This document shows, piece by piece, positions 3,286 to 47,354 of a stretch of DNA of 51,972 nucleotides. Positions within the stretch are counted from its first letter, which is position 1. Every line of letters starts with the position of its first letter. The stretch spans positions 1 through 51,972 of the forward strand of contig JAJRYR010000036.1 of the NCBI GenBank assembly GCA_024275655.1, given 5' to 3'. The notes under the pieces were generated by a model that had not been told where the DNA came from, made no database searches, and saw only the letters and a list, made by a program, of their open reading frames with translations. This stretch comes from an archaeon (GTDB lineage: Archaea > B1Sed10-29 > WALL01 > WAMD01). A program made the position numbers and the translations under genes.

Positions 3286-3936
3286 TTAGAGCAATCCTTT
3301 ATGCACCTTTCTCAGCAGCTCCTCAAAGCTCTTACTCTTCTTGTAAGTTTTGTATACCCGAGGTAGCTTTGTCTTCAAGAAATCATAACGCCACTGCTGC
3401 CAAACAGAGGGAATAGTGTAATAATGCTGGAAAATCTTGGCAATAACTTCGGAAAGCTGCCAAATTTCATTCCAATTAGGCAACTTCTTTAATTCATAGT
3501 AATCTATACCATAAATTTCCTTCATGATATCCCAGTAGTGGATATGGAAAAGCTCCTCTGCAATAATTCCCCTATCTCTATTTCCGATTCGGATTCCACT
3601 AGGGTATAAATAACAACCCCTCGTGCCGTACCACACTTGACAAGAATATCTCTTCCTCTGCCATTCAAAGCCCGTAAACTCACTTACCTTCTCAAAAAAT
3701 TCACTTTCAACTGGCCTCCAGTAATCCCTAACAATAACACAAAATTCCTTGTTCAATCTTTCGAAAGTTTTCAAGTGCTTCCTAACGAAATCAGCATCCC
3801 ATCCTCTAATGTCATCGTAATCTGGTCCAAGGCGTTCCCTAAGTTCCCTGGCTGTCATGGGGCGAAAATAGAGCCTTGGCATAATCTTTATTAGCCAACT
3901 GGTATTATTAAAACTTTGTACGGCTATTTTAGTCAA
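3286..3936 (-). CDS. Hypothetical protein (W/Y-rich, no recognised domain)
   Basis: It is a long ORF with coding-like composition. Its promoter region is the 51-bp direct repeat, copy A. Confidence 0.35.
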   Translation of the reverse strand: MTKIAVQSFNNTSWLIKIMPRLYFRPMTARELRERLGPDYDDIRGWDADFVRKHLKTFERLNKEFCVIVRDYWRPVESEFFEKVSEFTGFEWQRKRYSCQVWYGTRGCYLYPSGIRIGNRDRGIIAEELFHIHYWDIMKEIYGIDYYELKKLPNWNEIWQLSEVIAKIFQHYYTIPSVWQQWRYDFLKTKLPRVYKTYKKSKSFEELLRKVHKGLL

Positions 3937-3943
3937 TTTACGA

Positions 3944-3994
3944 GGTCGGAAATCCGACTAAATTTACAGAAAAATGGTCGGAAAACCGACCAAA
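3944..3994. repeat. 51-bp perfect direct repeat, copy A (left flank of ATPase cassette 1); it contains two hairpins, gtcggaaatccgac and ggtcggaaaaccgacc
   Basis: The 51-mer ggtcggaaatccgactaaatttacagaaaaatggtcggaaaaccgaccaaa recurs exactly at 5218-5268. Confidence 0.9.
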
Positions 3995-4028
3995 ATCTAT
4001 AAAAAGAATAAAAAAGATAAACCAATAC

Positions 4029-5213
4029 ATGAACCTAGAGGAAATGAAAAAAACAGCAATAAGGCTAGGGGAAAATGTAAAAAATCTCAAACATAGATAT
4101 GTATTTTTCAGTCTAGTGAATAGACTGTTCAAAGAACCCAGAATAAAGTTGGTGAGAGGTTTTAGAGGATCTGGAAAAACCACCATTCTACTACAAATTT
4201 TTAACAAGTACAGGAAAAGAGCTATGTATCTATCAGCGGATAGCCCTATGATTGCTGGAGAGACATTGTACAATGTTTTAAAAGAAGTAATATCCAGTGG
4301 ATACGACCTTCTCTTGATAGATGAAATACACAGATATCCGCACTGGAGGAGAGACATAAAGGCGATATATGATGAGTTCCCGGAGGTAACTCTAGTTTGC
4401 TCAGGAAGTGCGCCCCTAGCATTTGTACCTGAAAGGAGGGAGGAGGTAATAGATGTTGAGCCAATGGGGTTCAGAGAGTTCTTAGAACTCAAGCATGGGT
4501 TTTCCCTCATTGTGAGGGATGAATGGTTAGATCCAGAAAAAAGCATAGAGATGGTGGCGAGATACTCTCCAAACTTAGAATCTGAATTTAGGGAGTACCT
4601 CCAAGTAGGGGGGTACCCAACTTGTCTAAAGTATGATCTAGACAGTGCAAAAAAAGCTTTATACGCCTCAATAAGAAAGTCCATATATGAAGACACTGCA
4701 AGCATTTTAAAAATGTCTCAAGAAAAAATCTACGCATTAAACAAGATACTAGTATTTCTAGCCACATCAGAACCTGGAGAATTGAGTATCACCACACTAG
4801 CATCTGCCACAGAGCTTTCAAAATCGGTCATATATGAACTTCTAGATGCACTAGAAAAGATGAAGATAATAAGAATTATACGCCCGTACGGACGAGGGGC
4901 AAAACTTATTAGAGGATCTCCAAAAATGTTATTTTACCATCCCAATCTCAGATATGCCATATGTAACGAATTGTCAATTGAACCAAGCATAGGTGCCATT
5001 AGGGAGGAACTCGCAGTTTTCGCCCTTGTCTCCAGGGGATACACGGTGAATACATTAAAGGGGTTGAAGCGTTCCCCTGATTACTATGTGGGTAAACCAC
5101 TAAATATGGTCCTTGAAATTGGGGGTAAGGGAAAGTCCAAAAAACAAATAAAGGGTTACAAAAGAGCAAAGGTTATCAAACCTGATCAATTACTTCTTCT
5201 ATCACTTTTCTAG
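4029..5213 (+). CDS. AAA_14/DUF4143-type P-loop ATPase (paralog 1)
   Basis: Walker A GFRGSGKTT and Walker B LLLIDEIH, with family-typical length and C-terminal region. It is a paralog of the 7865-9106 and 10564-11814 genes. Confidence 0.7.
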   Translation: MNLEEMKKTAIRLGENVKNLKHRYVFFSLVNRLFKEPRIKLVRGFRGSGKTTILLQIFNKYRKRAMYLSADSPMIAGETLYNVLKEVISSGYDLLLIDEIHRYPHWRRDIKAIYDEFPEVTLVCSGSAPLAFVPERREEVIDVEPMGFREFLELKHGFSLIVRDEWLDPEKSIEMVARYSPNLESEFREYLQVGGYPTCLKYDLDSAKKALYASIRKSIYEDTASILKMSQEKIYALNKILVFLATSEPGELSITTLASATELSKSVIYELLDALEKMKIIRIIRPYGRGAKLIRGSPKMLFYHPNLRYAICNELSIEPSIGAIREELAVFALVSRGYTVNTLKGLKRSPDYYVGKPLNMVLEIGGKGKSKKQIKGYKRAKVIKPDQLLLLSLF

Positions 5214-5217
5214 ATTT

Positions 5218-5268
5218 GGTCGGAAATCCGACTAAATTTACAGAAAAATGGTCGGAAAACCGACCAAA
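5218..5268. repeat. 51-bp perfect direct repeat, copy B (right flank of ATPase cassette 1)
   Basis: It is identical to 3944-3994. It starts 4 bp after the ATPase stop and ends at the stop of the 5269-5919 gene. Confidence 0.9.
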
Positions 5269-5919
5269 TTACTCTTTTTTGTGTGCTTTTTCTTGCTTTT
5301 CATTTGTTTCCTGTTTACCTAGTCTTAACGCAATTACTGCCAGCACTGCAATTATCACCAGCCCAGCTATTGCAATCACCAGCACGGAATTGTCCTCAGT
5401 TCCTAGTTCCTGCTCTGGCTGTTCAGATGGTTGAGCAACTGGTAGGGTTGCATTAACCGTTTCCTGAGTTTGCTCTTCTTGGGGCTGGATCTCCTCTGTA
5501 CCAAATATCTTTGCCTCTAGATCTGCCAGAAGTGCATCCATGTCAAATGGTGGGTCTGCATGGCTGGTTAGCCAGTAGTACAACCACTCGTGGTACTGGT
5601 CTACCTTCTGCATTAAATCGTAATCCCCATAGTTCTGCAAGCAGGCCTTTGTGTGAGCCCCACCATAGTACTCTAAAGCTATCACTCTTCCGTTCCAATC
5701 TCCCTCGTTAAAGTTCCACTCCTTCTCTGCCTCCCTTGCTCCCTTCAAAAGGTAATACGTACATTTGTCCCAGACCTTGAACTGTTCATAACACAGACCA
5801 GCGTCAATGTACTTTCCCTGGGTGGCTAGAGAATTGCATTGCTCCAAGCTCTCGTAGGTAACGCCTAAAACCAGGGTTGAAACCAGGATTATGCCCAGCA
5901 AAGCATATACGCATTTCAT
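5269..5919 (-). CDS. Secreted/membrane-anchored hypothetical protein (N-terminal signal peptide, acidic Q/E-rich linker, C-terminal TM anchor)
   Basis: N-terminal MKCVYALLGIILVSTLVLGV and C-terminal VLVIAIAGLVIIAVLAVIAL followed by basic residues. Confidence 0.4.
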   Translation of the reverse strand: MKCVYALLGIILVSTLVLGVTYESLEQCNSLATQGKYIDAGLCYEQFKVWDKCTYYLLKGAREAEKEWNFNEGDWNGRVIALEYYGGAHTKACLQNYGDYDLMQKVDQYHEWLYYWLTSHADPPFDMDALLADLEAKIFGTEEIQPQEEQTQETVNATLPVAQPSEQPEQELGTEDNSVLVIAIAGLVIIAVLAVIALRLGKQETNEKQEKAHKKE

Positions 5920-6989
5920 AGATTAATTTTTGGGTTAAATCTTTTAAAAAACTCTCTCACAGCGTACACTGGATTCTCCGTGAAAATCAGGTCCAGGTCT
6001 GGTGGGAAGCACCTCTTGTAATTCTTCCACTTGTACCTTTCATCCATAAACACAACCACACCGACATCATCTTCATTCCTTATCAGCCTTCCCGCCGCTT
6101 GTATTGCCCTGGCCATTGCCGGGTACAGGTATCCGTAGGTCCAACCAGCCCCAAACTTGTACTCATAGTAATCTATTAGTGCTTTGGTTTCCAGGTCATA
6201 CTCGTTCAGAGGTATTCCGACCACAATCACTCCAACTAGTTCCCTTCCAGGATAGTCCACACCCTCTGCCAGGCTCCCTCCAGCTACTGCTAAGAGCAGG
6301 GCTCCTTCCTCCTTCATCCTCTTGAAAAGGGACAAGAGCTCGTTGGTTTCCTCTGGCTTAGAGGACTCCCTCTGAACCAGCACCTGCCTAGTGGTAGCGA
6401 TGTAAGATCTAATTCCGTGAAGAACATCATAGCTGGGAAAGAAAACCGCAACGTTTCCAGGGATTGCCTCCAGGATCTCTGAGATCTTTTCCCCAATCCT
6501 CTTAAATTCTTCCTCGTTCCTCTTTGAGTATCTGGTGGTGACTCCAGTGTAAACAACATTCAAGCGGTTTTTCTTGGGAAACGGAGACCTGTAAATCTTT
6601 GTTACGGTCCGCTCCGGATCGAAGCCCAGCAAGTCCCGGTACATCTCTAGAGGAACTAGTGTTCCGGACATGGCAATTACTGAGTGGGCAGAATCCATGA
6701 GATCCTGGGTGGCCAGGCTGGGATCCAAGTTCTTGTAAGAGATTGTTATCCCGGTGCCGGTCTTCCACTTCTTTGCTATTCTAATGTAGCTGGGAATTTC
6801 CTCTGACCACAGAGAGAAGAACTTTGCCAATTTCAAGCAGGCGGACTTGTTTCTGTTGGTGGTTTCCAGGTAAACTAGACCCTGGTCGTGGAACTCTCCA
6901 ATCAAATCCTCGTCCCAGCTCGGGAGGTCCGAACTGGAAACCAAAGTCTCTTTTTGGTTTGCCAGCTTCTTTGCCAGGACTTCTTCCAT
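5916..6989 (-). CDS. XPD/Rad3-family helicase, C-terminal part (Helicase_C_2); frameshifted continuation of 7007-7810
   Basis: SGTL motif and the HD2 region (VAVFFPSY...AAGRLIRNEDDVGVVVF). The open frame extends upstream to 7082 as HYSLTGEKAEKEV... and overlaps the N-terminal ORF in another frame. Confidence 0.65.
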   Translation of the reverse strand: MEEVLAKKLANQKETLVSSSDLPSWDEDLIGEFHDQGLVYLETTNRNKSACLKLAKFFSLWSEEIPSYIRIAKKWKTGTGITISYKNLDPSLATQDLMDSAHSVIAMSGTLVPLEMYRDLLGFDPERTVTKIYRSPFPKKNRLNVVYTGVTTRYSKRNEEEFKRIGEKISEILEAIPGNVAVFFPSYDVLHGIRSYIATTRQVLVQRESSKPEETNELLSLFKRMKEEGALLLAVAGGSLAEGVDYPGRELVGVIVVGIPLNEYDLETKALIDYYEYKFGAGWTYGYLYPAMARAIQAAGRLIRNEDDVGVVVFMDERYKWKNYKRCFPPDLDLIFTENPVYAVREFFKRFNPKINL

Positions 6990-7006
6990 AGCCTTGGAAA
7001 GTTTTC

Positions 7007-7810
7007 TCAGATGCTTTTCCAGGTGCTTCGCACCCAGGAGCTTAACTTCCTTCTCTGCCTTTTCACCAGTAAGTGAGTAATGCTAACACTGAGGTGGTTT
7101 CTAACCCTCTCTGGAACGTTGTGTGCCTCATCTATGATAATGACTGAATCTCTCAATGTCTTTTTTGTCTTTATCAGAAAGCTCTCTCTTATTCCAGAGG
7201 AGAGCAAATGGAAGTAGTCTGCTATTATCACCTGGGAGTCTCTAGCTATCTGTGTCATTATCTCATAGGCACAGAGTGGTCGTCTCTCCCCTTCGTATGT
7301 AAACGCTTTGCACATATCCACTAGCTTGTGGGCTGGTGTGACCATTCCATAATTCGCTAGGAGCTTTTCTAAATGAAGTCTTGCTGTCTTCCTCTGGCTG
7401 GGGGTGAATCCTCTCGCCCAAGCGTAGTACGGGCAGGATTCGTTTTTCCTTCTCTTGTTGCAAACCTCGTAGAACTCGTCCACGTCCATGCCTTCCAGCG
7501 AGGGATCAACACATGCATACCTTCTCCCGATTATGTCTGCTGCCCTGAACTTGACCTTGTGCCTTTTTGCGATTCTCTCCAGCTCGTTCACCGCAATTTG
7601 ATGCTGGGATATCTTGGGAGTCAAGAAAAAGACTGTCCCATCGTTTTCCAGGGCCCAGGTGAGGGAAGGTCCCAAGACGGCTGCGGTCTTTCCTATGCCA
7701 GTTGGCGCATGGGCAAGCAAATGCTTACCGCTAGACACGGCCTCCCAAACGTCCATCAAGAACTCTTCCTGGTACTTCCTAGGCCTAGAGTGAGAGAAAA
7801 GGATCTTCAC
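7007..7810 (-). CDS. XPD/Rad3-family helicase, N-terminal part (DEAD_2, Walker A, DEAH box)
   Basis: Walker A APTGIGKT and DEAH box IIIDEAHNV. The ORF ends about 25 codons after the DEAH box. Confidence 0.65.
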   Translation of the reverse strand: MKILFSHSRPRKYQEEFLMDVWEAVSSGKHLLAHAPTGIGKTAAVLGPSLTWALENDGTVFFLTPKISQHQIAVNELERIAKRHKVKFRAADIIGRRYACVDPSLEGMDVDEFYEVCNKRRKNESCPYYAWARGFTPSQRKTARLHLEKLLANYGMVTPAHKLVDMCKAFTYEGERRPLCAYEIMTQIARDSQVIIADYFHLLSSGIRESFLIKTKKTLRDSVIIIDEAHNVPERVRNHLSVSITHLLVKRQRRKLSSWVRSTWKSI

Positions 7811-7864
7811 ATTCTAGTTTTGGAAGAGGAACTATTTAGGGATTGAGGTCGCTGGGCAATTCAG

Positions 7865-9106
7865 TTATTTATATACCTTCGCATTTTTTAGAAGAAGGTT
7901 TATAAATGACTCAATGTCTTCTAGGGTTACTAAATGCTTATCCTTAACCCGTAGCTCATTAGAGGCAGCGTTCAACCCCTTGATCTCCCTAGCCAAGTGG
8001 GGGCCACGGCCAAGGGTTACCTGAACTGTGAAGGTTGGCTTGCCTTCCCTAGCTACAACAAAATCGCATTCGGCATCGTTTGTCCAGTAATAGATCTCAC
8101 TTCCCATCTTAAACAGTTCTATTCCAACCAGGAGTTCTAGAGCTCTGCCCCTATCTGGAGTTGGCCCCCAGCCCACTGCCCACTTGAAGGCTAGGTCAAT
8201 CGGATAAAACTTCCTAGGAAACGCCATCTGGGTTTTCAACGAATGTGCATAACGTCTAACCTCAAACATAACCATAGAATCCTTGAAAGCGTTCACGTAC
8301 TTTTCTGCGGTGTGGTAAGCCATCTTGAACAACTTGGATATCTTGTTCACGGAAATCGGGTTTCCCGCATTTCTCAGCAAATACCTGGCTATTTCATTTG
8401 CCTTGTCTAGATCTAAGTCATGACCAGCGGACACGTCCCTGGCAACTATGCTTTCATAGTACTCAACAGCGAGTTTTCTCTTCGCTGCTTCTGTTTTTTC
8501 CATGAATATCTCGGGGTAGCTACCATAACTCATGAGCTCTTCCATTAAACCTAGCAATGCTTGTCTGTCTCGAGGGTCCACAGGATTTATTCCCCTAATT
8601 CTAGCCGCCTCAAAGAGACTAAAGGGGTAAACTCTAAAGGTGATCGTCCTTCCAGCTAGTCTCCTAGAAAACTGGCTACCCAGCATAGCCAGCGTTGAGC
8701 CAGAAACAACCAGATTTACGGGGTCTCTCTTGTCGTATATTGCCCTAAGGTGCATATCCCACTTTGGCACATTCTGTATCTCATCCAGGAGGATAACTGC
8801 TCCTTTACCTCCTACTTTTTTCGCTTCCTCGTAGACTTTTTTGAAACCTGCTTCTTGTATTTCCGGATCCTCAAAATTAATGTAAACCGCCCTTCTCGGA
8901 TTACTCTGTATCAATTCACTTGCAACCTGGTACATTACTGTTGTTTTCCCTGCTCTCCTAGGACCTATTATCACCTTTATCTTTCTTTTCCCCATCCAAT
9001 CCAGAATTTTCCTGGTAACATCTCTAGGCTCTCCCAGTAGATCGCTAGGAACCTCTCCAACTGTCCACCACGGATTCCATGTCTCTAGAACATCCCTAAG
9101 CGCCAT
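7865..9106 (-). CDS. AAA_14/DUF4143-type P-loop ATPase (paralog 2)
   Basis: Walker A GPRRAGKTT and Walker B ILLDEIQ. The last 11 codons and the stop lie in the 34-bp repeat. Confidence 0.7.
   Translation of the reverse strand: MALRDVLETWNPWWTVGEVPSDLLGEPRDVTRKILDWMGKRKIKVIIGPRRAGKTTVMYQVASELIQSNPRRAVYINFEDPEIQEAGFKKVYEEAKKVGGKGAVILLDEIQNVPKWDMHLRAIYDKRDPVNLVVSGSTLAMLGSQFSRRLAGRTITFRVYPFSLFEAARIRGINPVDPRDRQALLGLMEELMSYGSYPEIFMEKTEAAKRKLAVEYYESIVARDVSAGHDLDLDKANEIARYLLRNAGNPISVNKISKLFKMAYHTAEKYVNAFKDSMVMFEVRRYAHSLKTQMAFPRKFYPIDLAFKWAVGWGPTPDRGRALELLVGIELFKMGSEIYYWTNDAECDFVVAREGKPTFTVQVTLGRGPHLAREIKGLNAASNELRVKDKHLVTLEDIESFINLLLKNAKVYK
7867..7900. repeat. 34-bp perfect direct repeat, copy A (atttatataccttcgcattttttagaagaaggtt), at the 3' end of ATPase paralog 2
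   Basis: It is identical to 9127-9160. Confidence 0.9.
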
Positions 9107-9126
9107 GTTCTATTATTAGTTTTGTC

Positions 9127-9160
9127 ATTTATATACCTTCGCATTTTTTAGAAGAAGGTT
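9127..9160. repeat. 34-bp perfect direct repeat, copy B, between the ATPase paralog 2 start and the stop of the Nre-like gene
   Basis: It is identical to 7867-7900. Read on the minus strand it again encodes ...NLLLKNAKVYK*. Confidence 0.9.
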
Positions 9161-10365
9161 CACATCCACCGTCTCAATGCCTCTCTGGATCTAATCCTAG
9201 CCAACAACTCACTACTCTTTCTCCACTCTCTCTTCACTTCAAGTCTTCTGTCTATCTCGTTCAAAGCTGCCTCCAAAGAATCAAATTTAACCGGCTTTGA
9301 GGCCATGGCCCTCCTAACGTTCTCCCTTATCTGCCAAACACCAACAGGAGCCCAGTACTCTGGGGTTATTTCCCTCACCACCAGGGCTTTTGCTTGCCTC
9401 TTTATTTTGGCTAGATACTCTAGAATTGCCAGCCTGGCTGCGTAGTATGCACCAGTAACATTGTCTGCATAACTGGTCCTTCCCTCGTAGGGCTCGTAGT
9501 CCGCTAGGATTACTGGTCGTTCTCCGCCAGTGACCCATATACAGCCAGGGTCATAGATTTCCACGTTGTCAAATTCCCACTTACCTGGGATCAGTAAGAC
9601 CTCAAACCTGTTGCCCAAATAGTAGCTCTCAAAGAGCAAGTAATCGCCGATCTCCTGAAAGTCCTTTACCCTAGCGATTAATGCCTTTCCCAGGGTATCA
9701 TCTGTCGCAGTGATGCTCCACCTAGTAGGAACTAGTTTTTTATCAATTCCCAAAGTTCCTATGGAAAGCAAGTTCGTGAGTTTGCTAACTGGTACGCCGT
9801 GCTGGTACAAGTAGAACAGAGCTTCTCCCGCCTTCATTTCGTCGTTCACAACTTCATCCACCTTTCTGGGTATCTTCGGGTTGTCCACAAGTTCCAGGCC
9901 CAAAATCTCTCCACTGGGCCCATGGGGAGCAGTGATGTCGTTCCAGGATACTTCGGTCTTAGGCTCTTTCTTGAACGCCAGCTCCATTTCCACGCTATCC
10001 CTTGCCATCACGGCCAATTGCATTTCATACAGGTGCCTGGGTGGATCCTTTGCCCAGTCTATGCGCATTTCCTCTTTTCCCCTTATTAGTTGAGACCTCA
10101 TCTGCAGTATCTCCTCTAGGGACTTTCCATACCAGGCCTCGGGAAGATCTAAAAAACTAGCATCTTCTGTTCTTGCAACCAATGGACCAACAAAAACTTT
10201 TGGATACCCTATCCTCCCAACAAGAACGCTTGGGGGGGAATTGGCATCTATGATCCTGGAGATGCTTTTCAAACTAGCCAAAACCCTAGCTCTCTCTAGC
10301 AGAGGGCATTTAGGCCTCCCACACAAAAGCTTGGTTCCTTTGCACTTAACACAAAGTTCTGGCAC
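9160..10365 (-). CDS. Nre-family (NreA-like) predicted DNA-repair protein with an N-terminal C4 zinc ribbon
   Basis: N-terminus MPELCVKCKGTKLLCGRPKCPLL and ~400 aa length. The assignment is from memory of the Nre_N/Nre_C architecture. Confidence 0.45.
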   Translation of the reverse strand: MPELCVKCKGTKLLCGRPKCPLLERARVLASLKSISRIIDANSPPSVLVGRIGYPKVFVGPLVARTEDASFLDLPEAWYGKSLEEILQMRSQLIRGKEEMRIDWAKDPPRHLYEMQLAVMARDSVEMELAFKKEPKTEVSWNDITAPHGPSGEILGLELVDNPKIPRKVDEVVNDEMKAGEALFYLYQHGVPVSKLTNLLSIGTLGIDKKLVPTRWSITATDDTLGKALIARVKDFQEIGDYLLFESYYLGNRFEVLLIPGKWEFDNVEIYDPGCIWVTGGERPVILADYEPYEGRTSYADNVTGAYYAARLAILEYLAKIKRQAKALVVREITPEYWAPVGVWQIRENVRRAMASKPVKFDSLEAALNEIDRRLEVKREWRKSSELLARIRSREALRRWM

Positions 10366-10388
10366 ACTAGGTTTTTGTTTAACAAGAA

Positions 10389-10446
10389 TTAAATACCTAG
10401 TCTTGCCAAAAATTATTGATGAAAATTGTTAAAACTAGGCACGGCC
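10389..10446. repeat. 58-bp perfect direct repeat, copy A; it carries a truncated copy of the start of the AbrB-like gene (MKIVKTRHG then divergence and a stop)
   Basis: It is identical to 11879-11936. Confidence 0.9.
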
Positions 10447-10518
10447 CAGTTCTTCTGTTGCCTAGGAAAACGGTCAGATATGTCTAAATAAATCCTGGAG
10501 GAAGGTTTTCTGTAAACA

Positions 10519-10546
10519 GAAAGAAATTCAAGGAATTCTTTCTGCT
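10519..10546. repeat. 28-bp imperfect palindrome (gaaagaaattcaaggaattctttctgct), copy A, 17 bp upstream of ATPase paralog 3
   Basis: It is identical to 11825-11852. Internal inverted symmetry runs around the central aa. Confidence 0.85.
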
Positions 10547-10563
10547 AGGAGAAAGAATTAAAT

Positions 10564-11814
10564 ATGGGAAAAACACTAAAATATATCATGGATTTGAAGA
10601 GTACACTAAAGGAGATAATCCTGGAATTTCACGAGAGAGGAATCCCAGAATACATCCACAGAGATATCCCCGTACCTAAACTGAAGAGGATAAATAAAGC
10701 TATAAGTATAGTTGGTCCTAGGAGATCCGGAAAGACATATCTGATGTATCAAATAATGAAGGAAAGAATAAGCGATATTGAAAAGATAGTTTATGTTAAC
10801 CTAGAGGATGACAGGCTCATAGACATAAATGCTAAAAACCTGCGCCAGATACTTGAAGCCTATACAGAGTTGTACCCTGAAAAGACACCTATTGTATTTC
10901 TAGATGAGGTTCAGGTTGTTCTAGGATGGGAAAAATTCGTTAGAAGGCTCGTAGATTCTGGGATAAGGGTGTATATTTCCGGGTCAAGTTCAAAGTTGAT
11001 TGGCAAGGAACTTGCAACAACCCTACGTGGAAGGGCAATAACGGTTAATGTTTACCCGTTGTCATTCAAAGAGTTTCTTAGGTTCAAAGGTGTGAAATTG
11101 GATAAAAACTGGGAGTACACGTCCCAAAGAGTGAAGGTAAAGAGAATGTTTGATCAGTTCATGAAAACTAGCGGGTTCCCAGAGATTGCACTTGAAGGAG
11201 AGATGTCACTGATAGATGACTACTTCAAAACAATATTCTTTAGGGATGTAGTAGAGAGGTATAGAATAAAGAACCTAGATCTCATGGAATTGTTGATGAA
11301 ATACTTGGTAAAAAACTATGCCAGGGAATTTAGCATAAATAGATTCCACAACTTTGCTAGGAGTCTGGGCTACAAATCCAGCACGTCTGTTGTTAGAGAG
11401 TATCTTAGGATGCTCCAAGAATCATATTTTGTACACCTGGCTCCAGTCTGGAGAAAGAGCAAAAAGGAATTTGTTTATTCCAAGAAAAGCTACGTTATCG
11501 ATCACGGCTTTGTTAACTACCTACTCCCAGAAGTGGATCCGGGAAGATTACTAGAAAATATAGTATTTGAGGAACTGGTAAAAAAAGGGGAAACAGTTAG
11601 GTACTACAAAAATGACGGGGAATGCGACTTCATAACAGGTAATCTGGCAATACAGGTGACTTACCGACTAGGAGAGGAAAATAGACAAAGAGAGATAAGG
11701 GGTCTCATGTTGGCAAAGAGCCACACGAGAAGAAGAGGGATAATATTAACGTATGATCAGGAAGAGAGCAATCCAGAAACTGTTCCAGCATACAAGTTTA
11801 TGCTTAGATCATAG
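10564..11814 (+). CDS. AAA_14/DUF4143-type P-loop ATPase (paralog 3)
   Basis: Walker A GPRRSGKTY and Walker B VFLDEVQ. It is closest to paralog 2. Confidence 0.7.
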   Translation: MGKTLKYIMDLKSTLKEIILEFHERGIPEYIHRDIPVPKLKRINKAISIVGPRRSGKTYLMYQIMKERISDIEKIVYVNLEDDRLIDINAKNLRQILEAYTELYPEKTPIVFLDEVQVVLGWEKFVRRLVDSGIRVYISGSSSKLIGKELATTLRGRAITVNVYPLSFKEFLRFKGVKLDKNWEYTSQRVKVKRMFDQFMKTSGFPEIALEGEMSLIDDYFKTIFFRDVVERYRIKNLDLMELLMKYLVKNYAREFSINRFHNFARSLGYKSSTSVVREYLRMLQESYFVHLAPVWRKSKKEFVYSKKSYVIDHGFVNYLLPEVDPGRLLENIVFEELVKKGETVRYYKNDGECDFITGNLAIQVTYRLGEENRQREIRGLMLAKSHTRRRGIILTYDQEESNPETVPAYKFMLRS

Positions 11815-11824
11815 TTTTCATATG

Positions 11825-11852
11825 GAAAGAAATTCAAGGAATTCTTTCTGCT
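11825..11852. repeat. 28-bp palindrome, copy B, 10 bp downstream of ATPase paralog 3
   Basis: It is identical to 10519-10546. Confidence 0.85.
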
Positions 11853-11878
11853 GCAAGATACTTGTGAGTATACAAAGC

Positions 11879-11936
11879 TTAAATACCTAGTCTTGCCAAA
11901 AATTATTGATGAAAATTGTTAAAACTAGGCACGGCC
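11879..11936. repeat. 58-bp perfect direct repeat, copy B; it contains the promoter and the first 10 codons of the 11906-12667 gene
   Basis: It is identical to 10389-10446. Confidence 0.9.
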
Positions 11937-12667
11937 TAGCTGTGGTTCTTCCCAGAGAGATCGTGGAACTGCTAGGGTTAAAGGAAGGGCAGGAGCTGGA
12001 ATTCAAGCACATTTCCGGCAAGGTTTTTGCTCTATTCCCAAAGGAAGCTGGCAAGAAACCATCAGAAAAGAAGGGGAAGGGGCTTACCGAAGAAGAGCTC
12101 AAGGTTCTCAAGAAGTTGAACAAGATTAGGTTCACGGAAAGGACTCCAAAGAAAGTTAAAGACGTGTTAACAAAAGAGGAGTGGGAAGTTCTGAAAGAAC
12201 TACTGAAAAAGAGAGTCATACTGAAGATGGTTCACGGAAAGTACGAAAAGAGCGGGGGAGTCTACTCCATAAGCAGGGAATATTACGGAATGTTAAAAGG
12301 CGTTGAAAAGAAAAAGGAAAAGGACGAAGTGGATGCCCTGGTGGACGTTCTAAAGAGAGACGGCTTCTTCTCAACAAAGGACCAAAAGATAGCAGAAGAA
12401 CTGGCAGAGAGACTAAATACTGAACTGGAACTTGGAGAGGTAGCGGCTGTGAAAAGCTTTGACAAGACATTCTACTTCGTTACAAACCAAACATTAGCAT
12501 CTGTGGGAGACCAGATCAGAAAAGTTCTGAAATCCGGTCCATTGACAGCTGAGGAGATAGCCACCAAACTAAAAAAGGATCCCACGCTAGTGAAGGCCGT
12601 GCTGGAGATACTTAGAGAGTCTGGGGAAGTGATAGAAAAAAGAAAAAATGTGTATTCCCTTGCGTGA
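11906..12667 (+). CDS. DNA-binding protein with an N-terminal AbrB/SpoVT (MazE-like) swapped-hairpin domain and a C-terminal winged helix
   Basis: KIVKTRHGLAVVLPREIVELLGLKEGQELEF resembles the AbrB/MazE fold. C-terminal LTAEEIATKLKKDPTLVKAVLEILRESGEVIEKR is wH-like. Confidence 0.45.
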   Translation: MMKIVKTRHGLAVVLPREIVELLGLKEGQELEFKHISGKVFALFPKEAGKKPSEKKGKGLTEEELKVLKKLNKIRFTERTPKKVKDVLTKEEWEVLKELLKKRVILKMVHGKYEKSGGVYSISREYYGMLKGVEKKKEKDEVDALVDVLKRDGFFSTKDQKIAEELAERLNTELELGEVAAVKSFDKTFYFVTNQTLASVGDQIRKVLKSGPLTAEEIATKLKKDPTLVKAVLEILRESGEVIEKRKNVYSLA

Positions 12668-46752: not shown

Positions 46753-46826
46753 TGGAGCGGGGGCTGGGATTTGAACCCAGGTCCTCCGGTCTGCAGCCGG
46801 ACGCATAGCCCCTCTGCCACCCCCGC
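46753..46826 (-). tRNA. tRNA-Cys (anticodon GCA), CCA encoded
   Basis: Minus-strand fold: acceptor GCGGGGG/CCCCCGC, anticodon stem UCCGG/CCGGA with loop CUGCAGA, T arm CUGGG-UUCAAAU-CCCAG, discriminator U, then CCA. Confidence 0.9.
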
Positions 46827-46830
46827 ACCG

Positions 46831-46866
46831 ATTTATTTTTGTCATAACTGGTTAAAAAGGTTTTAT
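46831..46866. promoter_or_regulatory. tRNA-Cys promoter (BRE/TATA ctttttaa ~27 nt upstream of the tRNA 5' end on the minus strand); it is copy 1 of a ~36-bp direct repeat
   Basis: atttatttttgtcataactggttaaaaaggtttta lies immediately 5' of tRNA-Cys. It is nearly identical to 47317-47354. Confidence 0.6.
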
Positions 46867-47316: not shown

Positions 47317-47354
47317 ATTTTATTTTTGTCATAACTGGTTAAAAAGGTTTTTAT
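47317..47354. promoter_or_regulatory. Copy 2 of the tRNA-Cys promoter repeat, 1-2 bp upstream of the antitoxin ATG (predicting a leaderless TA transcript)
   Basis: attttatttttgtcataactggttaaaaaggttttta differs from copy 1 by only two 1-nt indels. Confidence 0.6.

Follow-up and report, generated by a model that had tools for sequence, protein, structure and literature searches.

Perfect direct repeats around a PDC-S01 ATPase gene in an archaeal contig as candidate ends of an excisable single-gene cassette

The archaeal contig JAJRYR010000036.1 (assembly GCA_024275655.1; all 51,972 bases, hereafter the window) carries three diverged paralogous ATPase genes of the PDC-S01 candidate defence family. 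The second of these, a 413-amino-acid (aa) gene on the minus strand (7865..9106, hereafter the cassette gene), lies between two copies of a perfect direct repeat, one of which encodes the gene's own C-terminus. Are these repeats the ends of a unit that can leave and re-enter the chromosome, the remains of a former neighbouring copy, host sequence duplicated when the gene arrived, or a pair of regulatory sites? We favour the first reading, and put at roughly 60% the probability that the repeats are the att-like or solo-long-terminal-repeat (LTR)-like ends of a 1,260-bp excisable single-gene cassette.

A repeat that is promoter-like at one end and coding at the other

As had been predicted from the sequence, the 34-mer ATTTATATACCTTCGCATTTTTTAGAAGAAGGTT occurs exactly twice in the window, at 7867-7900 and 9127-9160, and a search allowing up to 3 mismatches returned no further copy. 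No such pair arose in 100 dinucleotide-preserving shuffles, with 0 expected by chance. The copies are direct repeats spaced 1,260 bp apart, and reach 37 nt if one mismatch is tolerated (7864-7900 and 9124-9160). On the minus (coding) strand its sequence is AACCTTCTTCTAAAAAATGCGAAGGTATATAAAT, in which a TATA-like A/T box, TATATAAAT, comes directly after a dyad-symmetric element (ACCTTC-N13-GAAGGT). The upstream (5') copy, copy B (9124..9160, minus strand; AACCTTCTTCTAAAAAATGCGAAGGTATATAAATGAC in the coding sense), has its palindrome arms at 9159-9154 and 9140-9135 and its A/T box at 9135-9127. Its outer edge touches the stop codon of an Nre-family gene, base 9160 being the final base of that gene's TGA, and between its inner edge and the ATG at 9106 lies an unrepeated 17-nt spacer (9107..9123, minus strand) that belongs to the cassette. 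The downstream (3') copy, copy A (7864..7900, minus strand), has the same palindrome and TATA box and is also coding sequence, comprising codons 403-413 (NLLLKNAKVYK) and the TAA stop (7867-7865) of the cassette gene, with the stop codon inside the A/T box. The original prediction was right on all three points that it made here: the contact with the Nre stop, the coding content of copy A, and the same C-terminal peptide when copy B is read in the ATPase frame. One repeat, the spacer and the gene together make up the unit of 1,260 bp.

In Archaea, a TATA box centred about 25 nt before the start codon is the geometry of a leaderless or short-leader mRNA. Read off the sequence, the centre of the A/T box in copy B lies about 25 nt from the ATG, and we infer that the upstream copy serves as the promoter/operator of the cassette gene, with the palindrome placed where a regulator would compete with TFB/TBP. 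As DNA, copy B folds into a predicted hairpin with z=-3.3, and copy A, taken with the preceding ATTTATA, gives a palindrome with 14-nt arms (-6.6 kcal/mol, z=-5.3). The dyad symmetry is conserved, 66.7% of cells being paired in register compared with at most 48.5% when the alignment is slid. Searches of Rfam at gathering and permissive thresholds gave no match for any cassette repeat and returned only two tRNAs.

A repeat of this kind might be a common terminator or promoter motif found next to many genes. We found no further copy in the window, and in approximately 0.9 Mb of loci the motif was seen only in the ATPase cassettes of this clade and as one solo copy, at locus L105. It had also been proposed that degenerate similarity continues past the perfect core. 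This proved to be at chance level, since local alignment of the 60-nt outer flanks gave p=0.085 and 0.21 against shuffles, and we rejected a longer decayed duplication or conversion tract beyond the repeat because the outer-flank similarity is not significant.

The peptide encoded by copy B had raised the idea that this copy is the 3' stub of a lost upstream copy of the ATPase gene. Tandem ATPase paralogues do exist at loci L019, L032, L035 and L050, and a tandem or circular ancestor may explain why a promoter overlaps its own gene's 3' end. As a recent local event, however, the stub found no support: there is no significant similarity past 37 nt and no further ATPase sequence past copy B, and copy B abuts the native end of the Nre gene (Nre_C was matched to residue 399/401). 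The two-copy layout is moreover identical in eight lineages, is conserved down to 38% protein identity and is accompanied by concerted evolution of the copies (below), whereas a one-off stub would decay independently. We therefore consider a local tandem-duplication relic very improbable.

Homologous cassettes at unrelated loci and an empty site between Nre and XPD

Relatives of the cassette protein were found at seven further loci in metagenome-assembled archaeal genomes (L016, L018, L019/L020, L025, L109, L110 and L111), with protein identities of 74% (P0002), 64% (P0003), 55% (P0007), 54% (P0008), 44% (P0011), 41% (the L025 protein) and 38% (P0015). The nearest named relatives of both the ATPase and the Nre protein belong to Candidatus Diapherotrites, which would make a DPANN archaeon the probable source of the window. 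Neighbouring genes at these loci are unrelated, and include a small MCM winged-helix open reading frame (ORF) with UbiA, a deaminase with an ASCH gene, a second ATPase with a peptidase M24, a metallophosphatase with DUF2207, SHMT with a tRNA synthetase, and a HinfI restriction-modification pair. Nevertheless, all seven loci (7/7) have a 35-56-nt direct repeat, one copy of which ends 3-30 nt before the ATG while the second (also 7/7) lies over the last ~11 codons and the stop. These repeats are homologous to that of the window, with the palindrome centred at the same position and then TTTTTAAAT. In alignments of the window with L016, L018 and L019, homology was lost within a few bases outside both repeats. 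Because similarity is confined within the repeat edges, the conserved unit is repeat-spacer-gene(repeat). The downstream gene is convergent at 3/8 loci, so the 3' copy is not generally the promoter of a host gene.

Within each cassette the two copies resemble each other more than they resemble their counterparts elsewhere. A 5' copy differs from its own 3' partner by 1.25 mismatches per 34 positions and from non-partner 3' copies by 9.36, and 7/8 of the 5' copies are nearest their own partner (permutation p=6e-5). At sites that vary among 3' copies, the 5' copy agrees with its partner in 152/160 cases, compared with 54% for non-partners. This likeness extends to silent changes: of the third-codon positions that vary in the 3' copy, 53/56 have their match in the 5' copy, which is non-coding. 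Such partner likeness is not what a single ancestral duplication followed by independent drift would leave, and the copies would appear to have been either regenerated from one another when the cassette moved, in the manner of LTRs, or repeatedly homogenised by conversion.

These observations bear on the possibility that both copies are purely regulatory, as operator or terminator-promoter modules bound by one factor that might, for example, loop or insulate a toxic gene. Selection or gene conversion would then keep the copies alike with no mobility involved, and the empty site described below would be an ordinary deletion between repeats. The palindrome does adjoin a TATA box, the modelled Orc1/Cdc6-like AAA+ and winged-helix architecture of the protein would suit the binding of such sites, and in the L106 orthologue of the third cassette the stems are kept in both copies while the loops diverge. 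Selection on a binding site, however, needs no mirroring of lineage-variable synonymous and loop positions between partners (the 53/56 above). Nor does a regulatory role fit three further features: homology between cassettes in unrelated contexts stops at the repeat edges, two neighbouring cassettes were gained or lost exactly at the repeat, and the strong family-wide excess of repeats includes non-palindromic ones. We judge a solely regulatory origin decidedly unlikely.

In the window, the cassette is wedged between two host genes on the minus strand: a complete Nre-family gene with Nre_N and Nre_C domains (9160..10365), whose stop touches copy B, and an XPD-type helicase (5916..7810). The original prediction had recommended comparing relatives for the presence or absence of the ATPase between these genes, and this comparison was informative. 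Locus L105 (contig JBMYCC010000037.1) has an Nre orthologue 98% identical at the aa level, and its DNA is 86-95% identical to the window and differs from it by two clean indels. The ATPase is absent from L105, where bases 7104-7147 align to both window stretches, 9161-9118 and 7901-7858, and where the order is Nre TGA-AACCTTCTTCTCAAAAATGCGAAGGTATATAAATGAC-TGAACTGCCC...XPD; this corresponds to the left flank of copy B, one repeat and the right flank of copy A. In L113 (Nre 70% identical), 1 nt separates the Nre stop from the XPD start, with no repeat copy, and a regular-expression search over all loci found no motif after Nre in the more distant relatives. Because these outgroups have no motif after Nre, the repeat at the Nre-XPD site is derived in the lineage of the window and L105. 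The simplest reading is that the repeat arrived with the cassette and that L105 represents the solo state left by recombination between the copies; the L105 repeat could equally have been a landing pad from which the window re-acquired the cassette. A scan of genome contigs with Nre returned relatives of at most 42% identity only.

An empty site with exactly one copy is also what would be expected if the repeat were a target-site duplication. Here the 37 nt would be a host intergenic promoter into which a promoterless, stop-less ATPase unit was inserted by a staggered cut and fill-in, with L105 as the unoccupied target, much as spacer integration duplicates a CRISPR repeat or casposons duplicate their target. 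Other cassettes do have duplicated host sequence at their ends: the 68-nt repeat of the third cassette is an AbrB promoter plus 10 codons, the repeats at L035 are nested, and by eye the 33-nt repeat of a toxin-antitoxin cassette resembles a tRNA-Cys promoter and the 64-nt overlap of L031 resembles a host gene. The repeat-encoded protein tail would also suit this origin, as it is modelled with low confidence (falling from 78 to 39) and fits the PxWKWLL end of the family unclearly. On the other hand, the repeat, loop bases included, accompanies orthologues in seven other genomes with unrelated flanks, and every clade member so far has a homologous repeat whatever the site. The convergent downstream gene in three loci leaves no host promoter to be expected there, outgroups have no such sequence after Nre, and a single solo copy was seen in all related sequence examined. 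Eight independent insertions would, in addition, each require a host TATA box ~25 nt from the ATG. For this cassette we thus hold target-site duplication to be unlikely.

The repeat belongs to the cassette and not to the site: the cassette is discrete and bounded by its own repeats, the pair evolves in concert, and gain or loss took place exactly at the repeat. An element-borne repeat holds firmly only for the clade of this second cassette, and more weakly for the third. The proposal that the cassette carries an att-like site is therefore supported by the repeat pair in unrelated neighbourhoods, by homology that ends at the repeat edges and by the single copy in L105.

The XPD gene of the window is split into ORFs at 7007-7810 (267 aa, DEAD_2) and 5916-6989 (357 aa, HBB and Helicase_C_2). 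Its orthologues are single genes, of 631 aa in L105 and 630 aa in L113, and the blastn alignment of the window and L105 over the XPD region has one gap; the split is a frameshift, a pseudogene or an assembly error.

The cassette protein and how the cassette might move

The cassette protein is a clear member of the PDC-S01 candidate defence genes (AAA_14 + DUF4143; COG1373). It matched PADLOC model PDLC04787 (PDC-S01) with E=9.6e-84 over residues 27-400, and scored 112 bits for AAA_14 (cut-off 27) and 48 bits for DUF4143 (cut-off 28). All three ATPase paralogues of the window have both domains and match PDC-S01. PDC-S01 has been described as an ATPase fused to a PD-(D/E)XK domain and as the fourth most common putative prokaryotic defence system, enriched in Archaea; it is a computational candidate single-gene defence family, without experimental validation (PMC12988326). 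DUF4143, a domain of unknown function, has been classed with the PD-(D/E)XK domains (PMC3424549). The literature searched, which did not take in subscription journals, described no flanking direct repeats, no cassette boundaries and no presence/absence at repeats for PDC-S01; on this absence of evidence only, the repeat architecture of these genes appears to be new.

An AlphaFold2 model built from 78 homologues is confident, with a predicted local distance difference test (pLDDT) score of 93.6. The structures that match it best are those of STAND NTPases (plant resistosomes, CED-4 and Avs5) and Orc1/Cdc6 on origin DNA. On this model the protein is predicted to be an AAA+ ATPase of STAND/Orc1-like type that also has a winged helix and, at its C-terminus, a PD-(D/E)XK-like domain. 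The tail encoded by the repeat is the least confident part of the model, with pLDDT falling from 78 to 39, and showed no clear alignment with the usual PxWKWLL end of the family. A sequence search of solved structures with the cassette protein gave no match, and exact look-ups of the window ATPase and Nre proteins found neither on record.

How could such a unit come and go? We propose that the upstream copy acts as the promoter of the cassette gene while the downstream copy is read as its last 11 codons and stop, and that a regulator, probably the winged helix of the cassette ATPase itself, would sit at the palindrome. Recombination between the direct repeats would loop the gene out as a 1,260-bp circle and leave one solo copy in the chromosome, and in the reverse reaction the circle would re-enter wherever homologous sequence exists. 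Cycles of excision and re-entry, or gene conversion, would keep the copies identical. Since no recombinase is encoded in the cassette or elsewhere in the window, host homologous recombination acting on 34-56 nt of identity is the default candidate for the enzyme, with the cassette's own winged-helix nuclease as a possible helper. The same loop-out/loop-in logic would apply to the third cassette, for which L105 and L113 each have a single copy of the 68-nt repeat.

A bolder version would make the PDC-S01 genes a previously unrecognised class of autonomous single-gene mobile elements, mobilised by their own ATPase-winged-helix-nuclease. By binding to the palindrome of its terminal repeats, the Orc/STAND-like protein would cause the unit to be excised as a circle, and re-insertion would be duplicative, with cuts on both sides of the circle's single repeat and fill-in regenerating one repeat per end; the circle might even replicate briefly as a minimal replicon. 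If true, such self-mobilisation would account for cassette boundaries that are clean even in unrelated sites, for concerted evolution of the LTR kind and for the huge abundance of the family, and would make a very common 'defence candidate' at least partly a selfish element. We regard it as quite a long shot.

Several observations weigh against an excisable cassette with att-like ends. Searches of the cassette and of all large ORFs in the 52-kb window turned up no domain of a recombinase, integrase or transposase, and the fold of the protein has nothing recombinase- or transposase-like. No circular form or re-insertion was observed, and the polarity of the difference between L105 and the window can be inferred either way, as loss in L105 or as re-gain in the window. 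Recombination between repeats covers loss and re-gain where a repeat is already present, and does not explain the arrival of the unit, both repeats included, in eight different contexts. Other cassettes are bounded by host-derived sequence (the outer pair of the third cassette, L035, and probably both L031 and the toxin-antitoxin module at 46.8 kb), and for such bounding repeats target duplication would be a better fit than an element-borne repeat. Some near-identical genes of other clades differ in having repeats at all. Finally, covariation in the palindrome is unsupported, 139/500 shuffles reaching the observed score, and conserved dyad symmetry is the only argument for the palindrome as a putative structure or binding site.

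We also compared the cassette with known systems. As in integrative elements with attL/attR and in LTR retroelements that form solo LTRs, direct repeats bound the unit, the empty site retains one copy, the upstream copy holds the promoter, the downstream copy holds the end of the transcription unit, and partners are more alike than orthologues. Direct repeats at both ends and one copy at an empty site were thus found (window versus L105), and an element-encoded integrase or recombinase was not, the sole gene encoding the STAND/Orc-like AAA+ protein with its PD-(D/E)XK-like domain. Unlike att and LTR elements, then, the cassette has no integrase or reverse transcriptase, consists of a single 1.2-kb gene and has repeats of only 34-56 nt that are partly coding.

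Integron cassettes, including those of archaeal integrons, and the pdif modules of Acinetobacter share with it a small size, often a single gene, the lack of a recombinase and palindromic sites, and we counted circle formation and clustering side by side as further likenesses. An integron cassette, however, has a single attC with RYYYAAC/GTTRRRY cores and lies next to IntI/attI, whereas here each cassette has two identical lineage-specific copies; we rejected an integron cassette because no attC cores are visible in the 37-nt repeat and no integrase domain was found among the large window ORFs. The pdif sites are 28-bp Xer sites of 11-6-11 layout, and a Xer/dif module (IMEX or pdif; ~11-bp arms with a 6-8-bp spacer) was likewise set aside, as 13 nt lie between the arms here, which are ACCTTC/GAAGGT and can be extended to 14 nt in copy A.

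CRISPR spacer integration and the target-site duplications of casposons resemble the cassette in placing a palindromic repeat of ~30-40 nt on both sides and in having a single repeat at the empty site. Unlike them, the cassette has no Cas1 or array, its 'spacer' is a 1.2-kb gene, and its repeat follows the gene and not the locus. A CRISPR array, with at least three regularly spaced repeats and short spacers, was rejected: the two copies are 1,260 bp apart and gave no Rfam CRISPR-DR match. IS200/IS605 and palindrome-associated transposable elements (PATE) have same-strand hairpins near both ends and cargo that can be mobilised in trans, as might be the case here. IS200/IS605 excision, however, is precise and leaves no hairpin copy, whereas L105 retains a full repeat copy and the repeats here are exact duplicates that include coding sequence; no TnpA, TnpB or Y1 (HUH) transposase domain was found among the large window ORFs, and both classes were rejected. 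A classical transposon or insertion sequence was rejected as well, there being no terminal inverted repeats and no short target-site duplication of fixed length, and the direct repeats being 34-56 nt long, variable in length by locus and associated with the gene.

Were PDC-S01 genes bounded by their own palindromic repeats, this would give a handle on their mobility as excisable, re-insertable single-gene cassettes that lack a recombinase, would make the palindrome the likely DNA-binding site of the protein, and would advise caution in counting every PDC-S01 copy as a defence system. A repeat before the ATG with the same repeat over or after the stop would also serve as a signature for delimiting cassettes and finding empty sites. 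Even if only recombination between chance duplicates is involved, it would still explain the rapid gain and loss of PDC-S01 genes in small archaeal genomes.

Sibling cassettes, the wider family and other repeat-flanked modules

The prediction that each of the three paralogues has its own perfect repeats holds, with pairs of 51, 34 and 28 nt for cassettes 1, 2 and 3. Cassette 3 (10382..11939, plus strand) contains an ATPase gene at 10564-11814 between the copies of a 28-nt palindromic pair (10519-10546 and 11825-11852; hairpin z=-4.1), which is itself nested in a 68-nt pair (10382-10449 and 11872-11939, 94% identical). The outer pair consists of the promoter and first 10 codons of a host AbrB-like gene. 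L105 bases 5815-5875 align to both copies of the 68-nt repeat, and an empty state, with one promoter and the AbrB-like gene adjoining Nre, is found in L105 and in the outgroup L113; as it is common to both, it is ancestral at this site.

The junctions of cassette 3 are composite. Copy A of the 68-nt repeat consists of the recipient's left flank, a 58-nt core and a diverged AbrB stub (MKIVKTRHG-PVLLLPRKTV...), which is closer to the AbrB of L106 (LAVLLP) than to the window's own (LAVVLP). Copy B starts with ACAAAGCTTAA, which in L106 is the end of a 274-aa gene upstream of AbrB, and continues into the recipient AbrB. These junctions would be the ones expected from a Campbell-type single crossover of a circle from an L106-like donor at the homologous promoter. 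The stub itself forms a small ORF at 10419-10487, MKIVKTRHGPVLLLPRKTVRYV followed by a stop, whose first 10 codons are those of the AbrB-like gene (11909-12667) and whose remainder is a diverged, L106-like AbrB N-terminus, as if it had been imported from a foreign donor along with cassette 3.

L106 has an orthologue of cassette 3 at the same locus, with 73% DNA identity and a homologous 49-nt pair. There the stems, AGAAAGAA/TTCTTTCT, are kept in both copies and the loops have diverged, and because of this both cassette-3 palindromes appear to be under selection. At the Nre/AbrB locus of L106 (7698-7716, 8547-8565 and 9948-9966) and L107 (5486-5501 and 6349-6364), a near-identical promoter motif, ACAAGRATTAAATACCTAG, precedes each of the successive same-strand genes, namely the AbrB-like gene, the 274/278-aa gene and the ATPase. 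This gives the impression that the promoter was duplicated with every gene inserted there.

Cassette 1 (3944..5268, plus strand) has a perfect, strongly palindromic 51-nt pair (3944-3994 and 5218-5268; hairpin z=-5.6) around an ATPase gene at 4029-5213. The adjoining 216-aa ORF (3286-3936, minus strand) had no homologue but itself among 5.8 billion proteins, and because this neighbour is an orphan, cassette 1 has no presence/absence comparison. The ORF on the other side, 5269-5919, had no Pfam match; segmental duplication at cassette 1 was rejected, as the two flanking 216-aa ORFs are unrelated.

We then asked how widespread flanking repeats are, using 96 PDC-S01-like ORFs with usable flanks gathered from a metagenome scan with clade alignment A4 and from look-ups, and comparing the 520 nt that surround the start of each ORF with the 550 nt that surround its stop (score at least 20). 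A flanking repeat was found for 32/96 ORFs (27/91 after duplicates were removed), compared with 3/303 other ORFs of 250-600 aa in the same loci (Fisher p=5e-16). The repeats are lineage-specific and 22-151 nt long, and 13/27 (48%) are strongly palindromic (z<-2), versus 15% of control segments. Two kinds can be told apart. Repeats of the first hug the gene, are often palindromic and overlap the stop or start, and those of the second lie 100-380 nt off and resemble duplicated host sequence (L035 and the outer pair of cassette 3; by eye alone, L031 and L074). This pattern suggests that the PDC-S01 family spreads as small repeat-bounded cassettes. A scan of viral contigs gave four distant matches, none with flanking repeats.

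At L035, two overlapping pairs, 1-57 / 2832-2888 (57 nt) and 1400-1450 / 2799-2849 (51 nt), each 96% identical, combine a host promoter with the beginning of a host gene and flank two tandem ATPases that are only 31% identical. This arrangement would fit two insertions that followed one another at a single site, with the target duplicated each time. At L032, four tandem PDC-S01-like ATPase genes span 4934-10745, with spacers full of GGTGACT/GGTGGAAC-type short tandem repeats. The repeats of L094 (4592-4666 / 6231-6305) and L098 (137-181 / 1846-1890) surround ATPases that are 79% identical; both are long palindromes with a shared central GATAGAG, and their arm sequences differ, a hint that in another clade the loop is conserved and the stems change. 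Two short contigs end within repeats: L017, a 1,287-nt Logan contig, starts and ends inside the L016 cassette repeats, copies which share just 27 exact bases, and the two ends of L031 (1,921 nt), with a single ATPase gene between them, share a direct overlap of 64 nt. Neither was used as evidence for a circle or a polymorphism, as assembly breaks at repeats explain both equally well.

Repeats also surround other genes of the window. A perfect 33-nt direct repeat (46832-46864 and 47319-47351) flanks a ~450-bp minus-strand module of two ORFs that by appearance encode a RelE/ParE-type toxin and a small antitoxin. On one side it adjoins the stop of a Na+/H+ exchanger gene (47351) and on the other tRNA-Cys (46753-46826, minus strand), and its repeat is non-palindromic (z=+1.1) and by eye resembles a duplicated tRNA-Cys promoter. 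Judged by this layout, the genome seems to have accessory cassettes flanked by repeats of a second kind as well, of which this module would be one. Lastly, a perfect 22-nt GC-rich hairpin repeat, AGGGGGCCCTTAGCGGGCCCCA (395-416 and 1517-1538), with an adjacent 86% repeat (417-438 and 1611-1632), brackets ORF 528-1529 (333 aa, HTH_24/AsnC-type winged helix), one of just three control ORFs with a flanking repeat. One copy overlaps the stop, as in the layout of the ATPase cassettes, and behind the ORF lies a GC-rich segment (~1539-1660) in an otherwise AT-rich genome.

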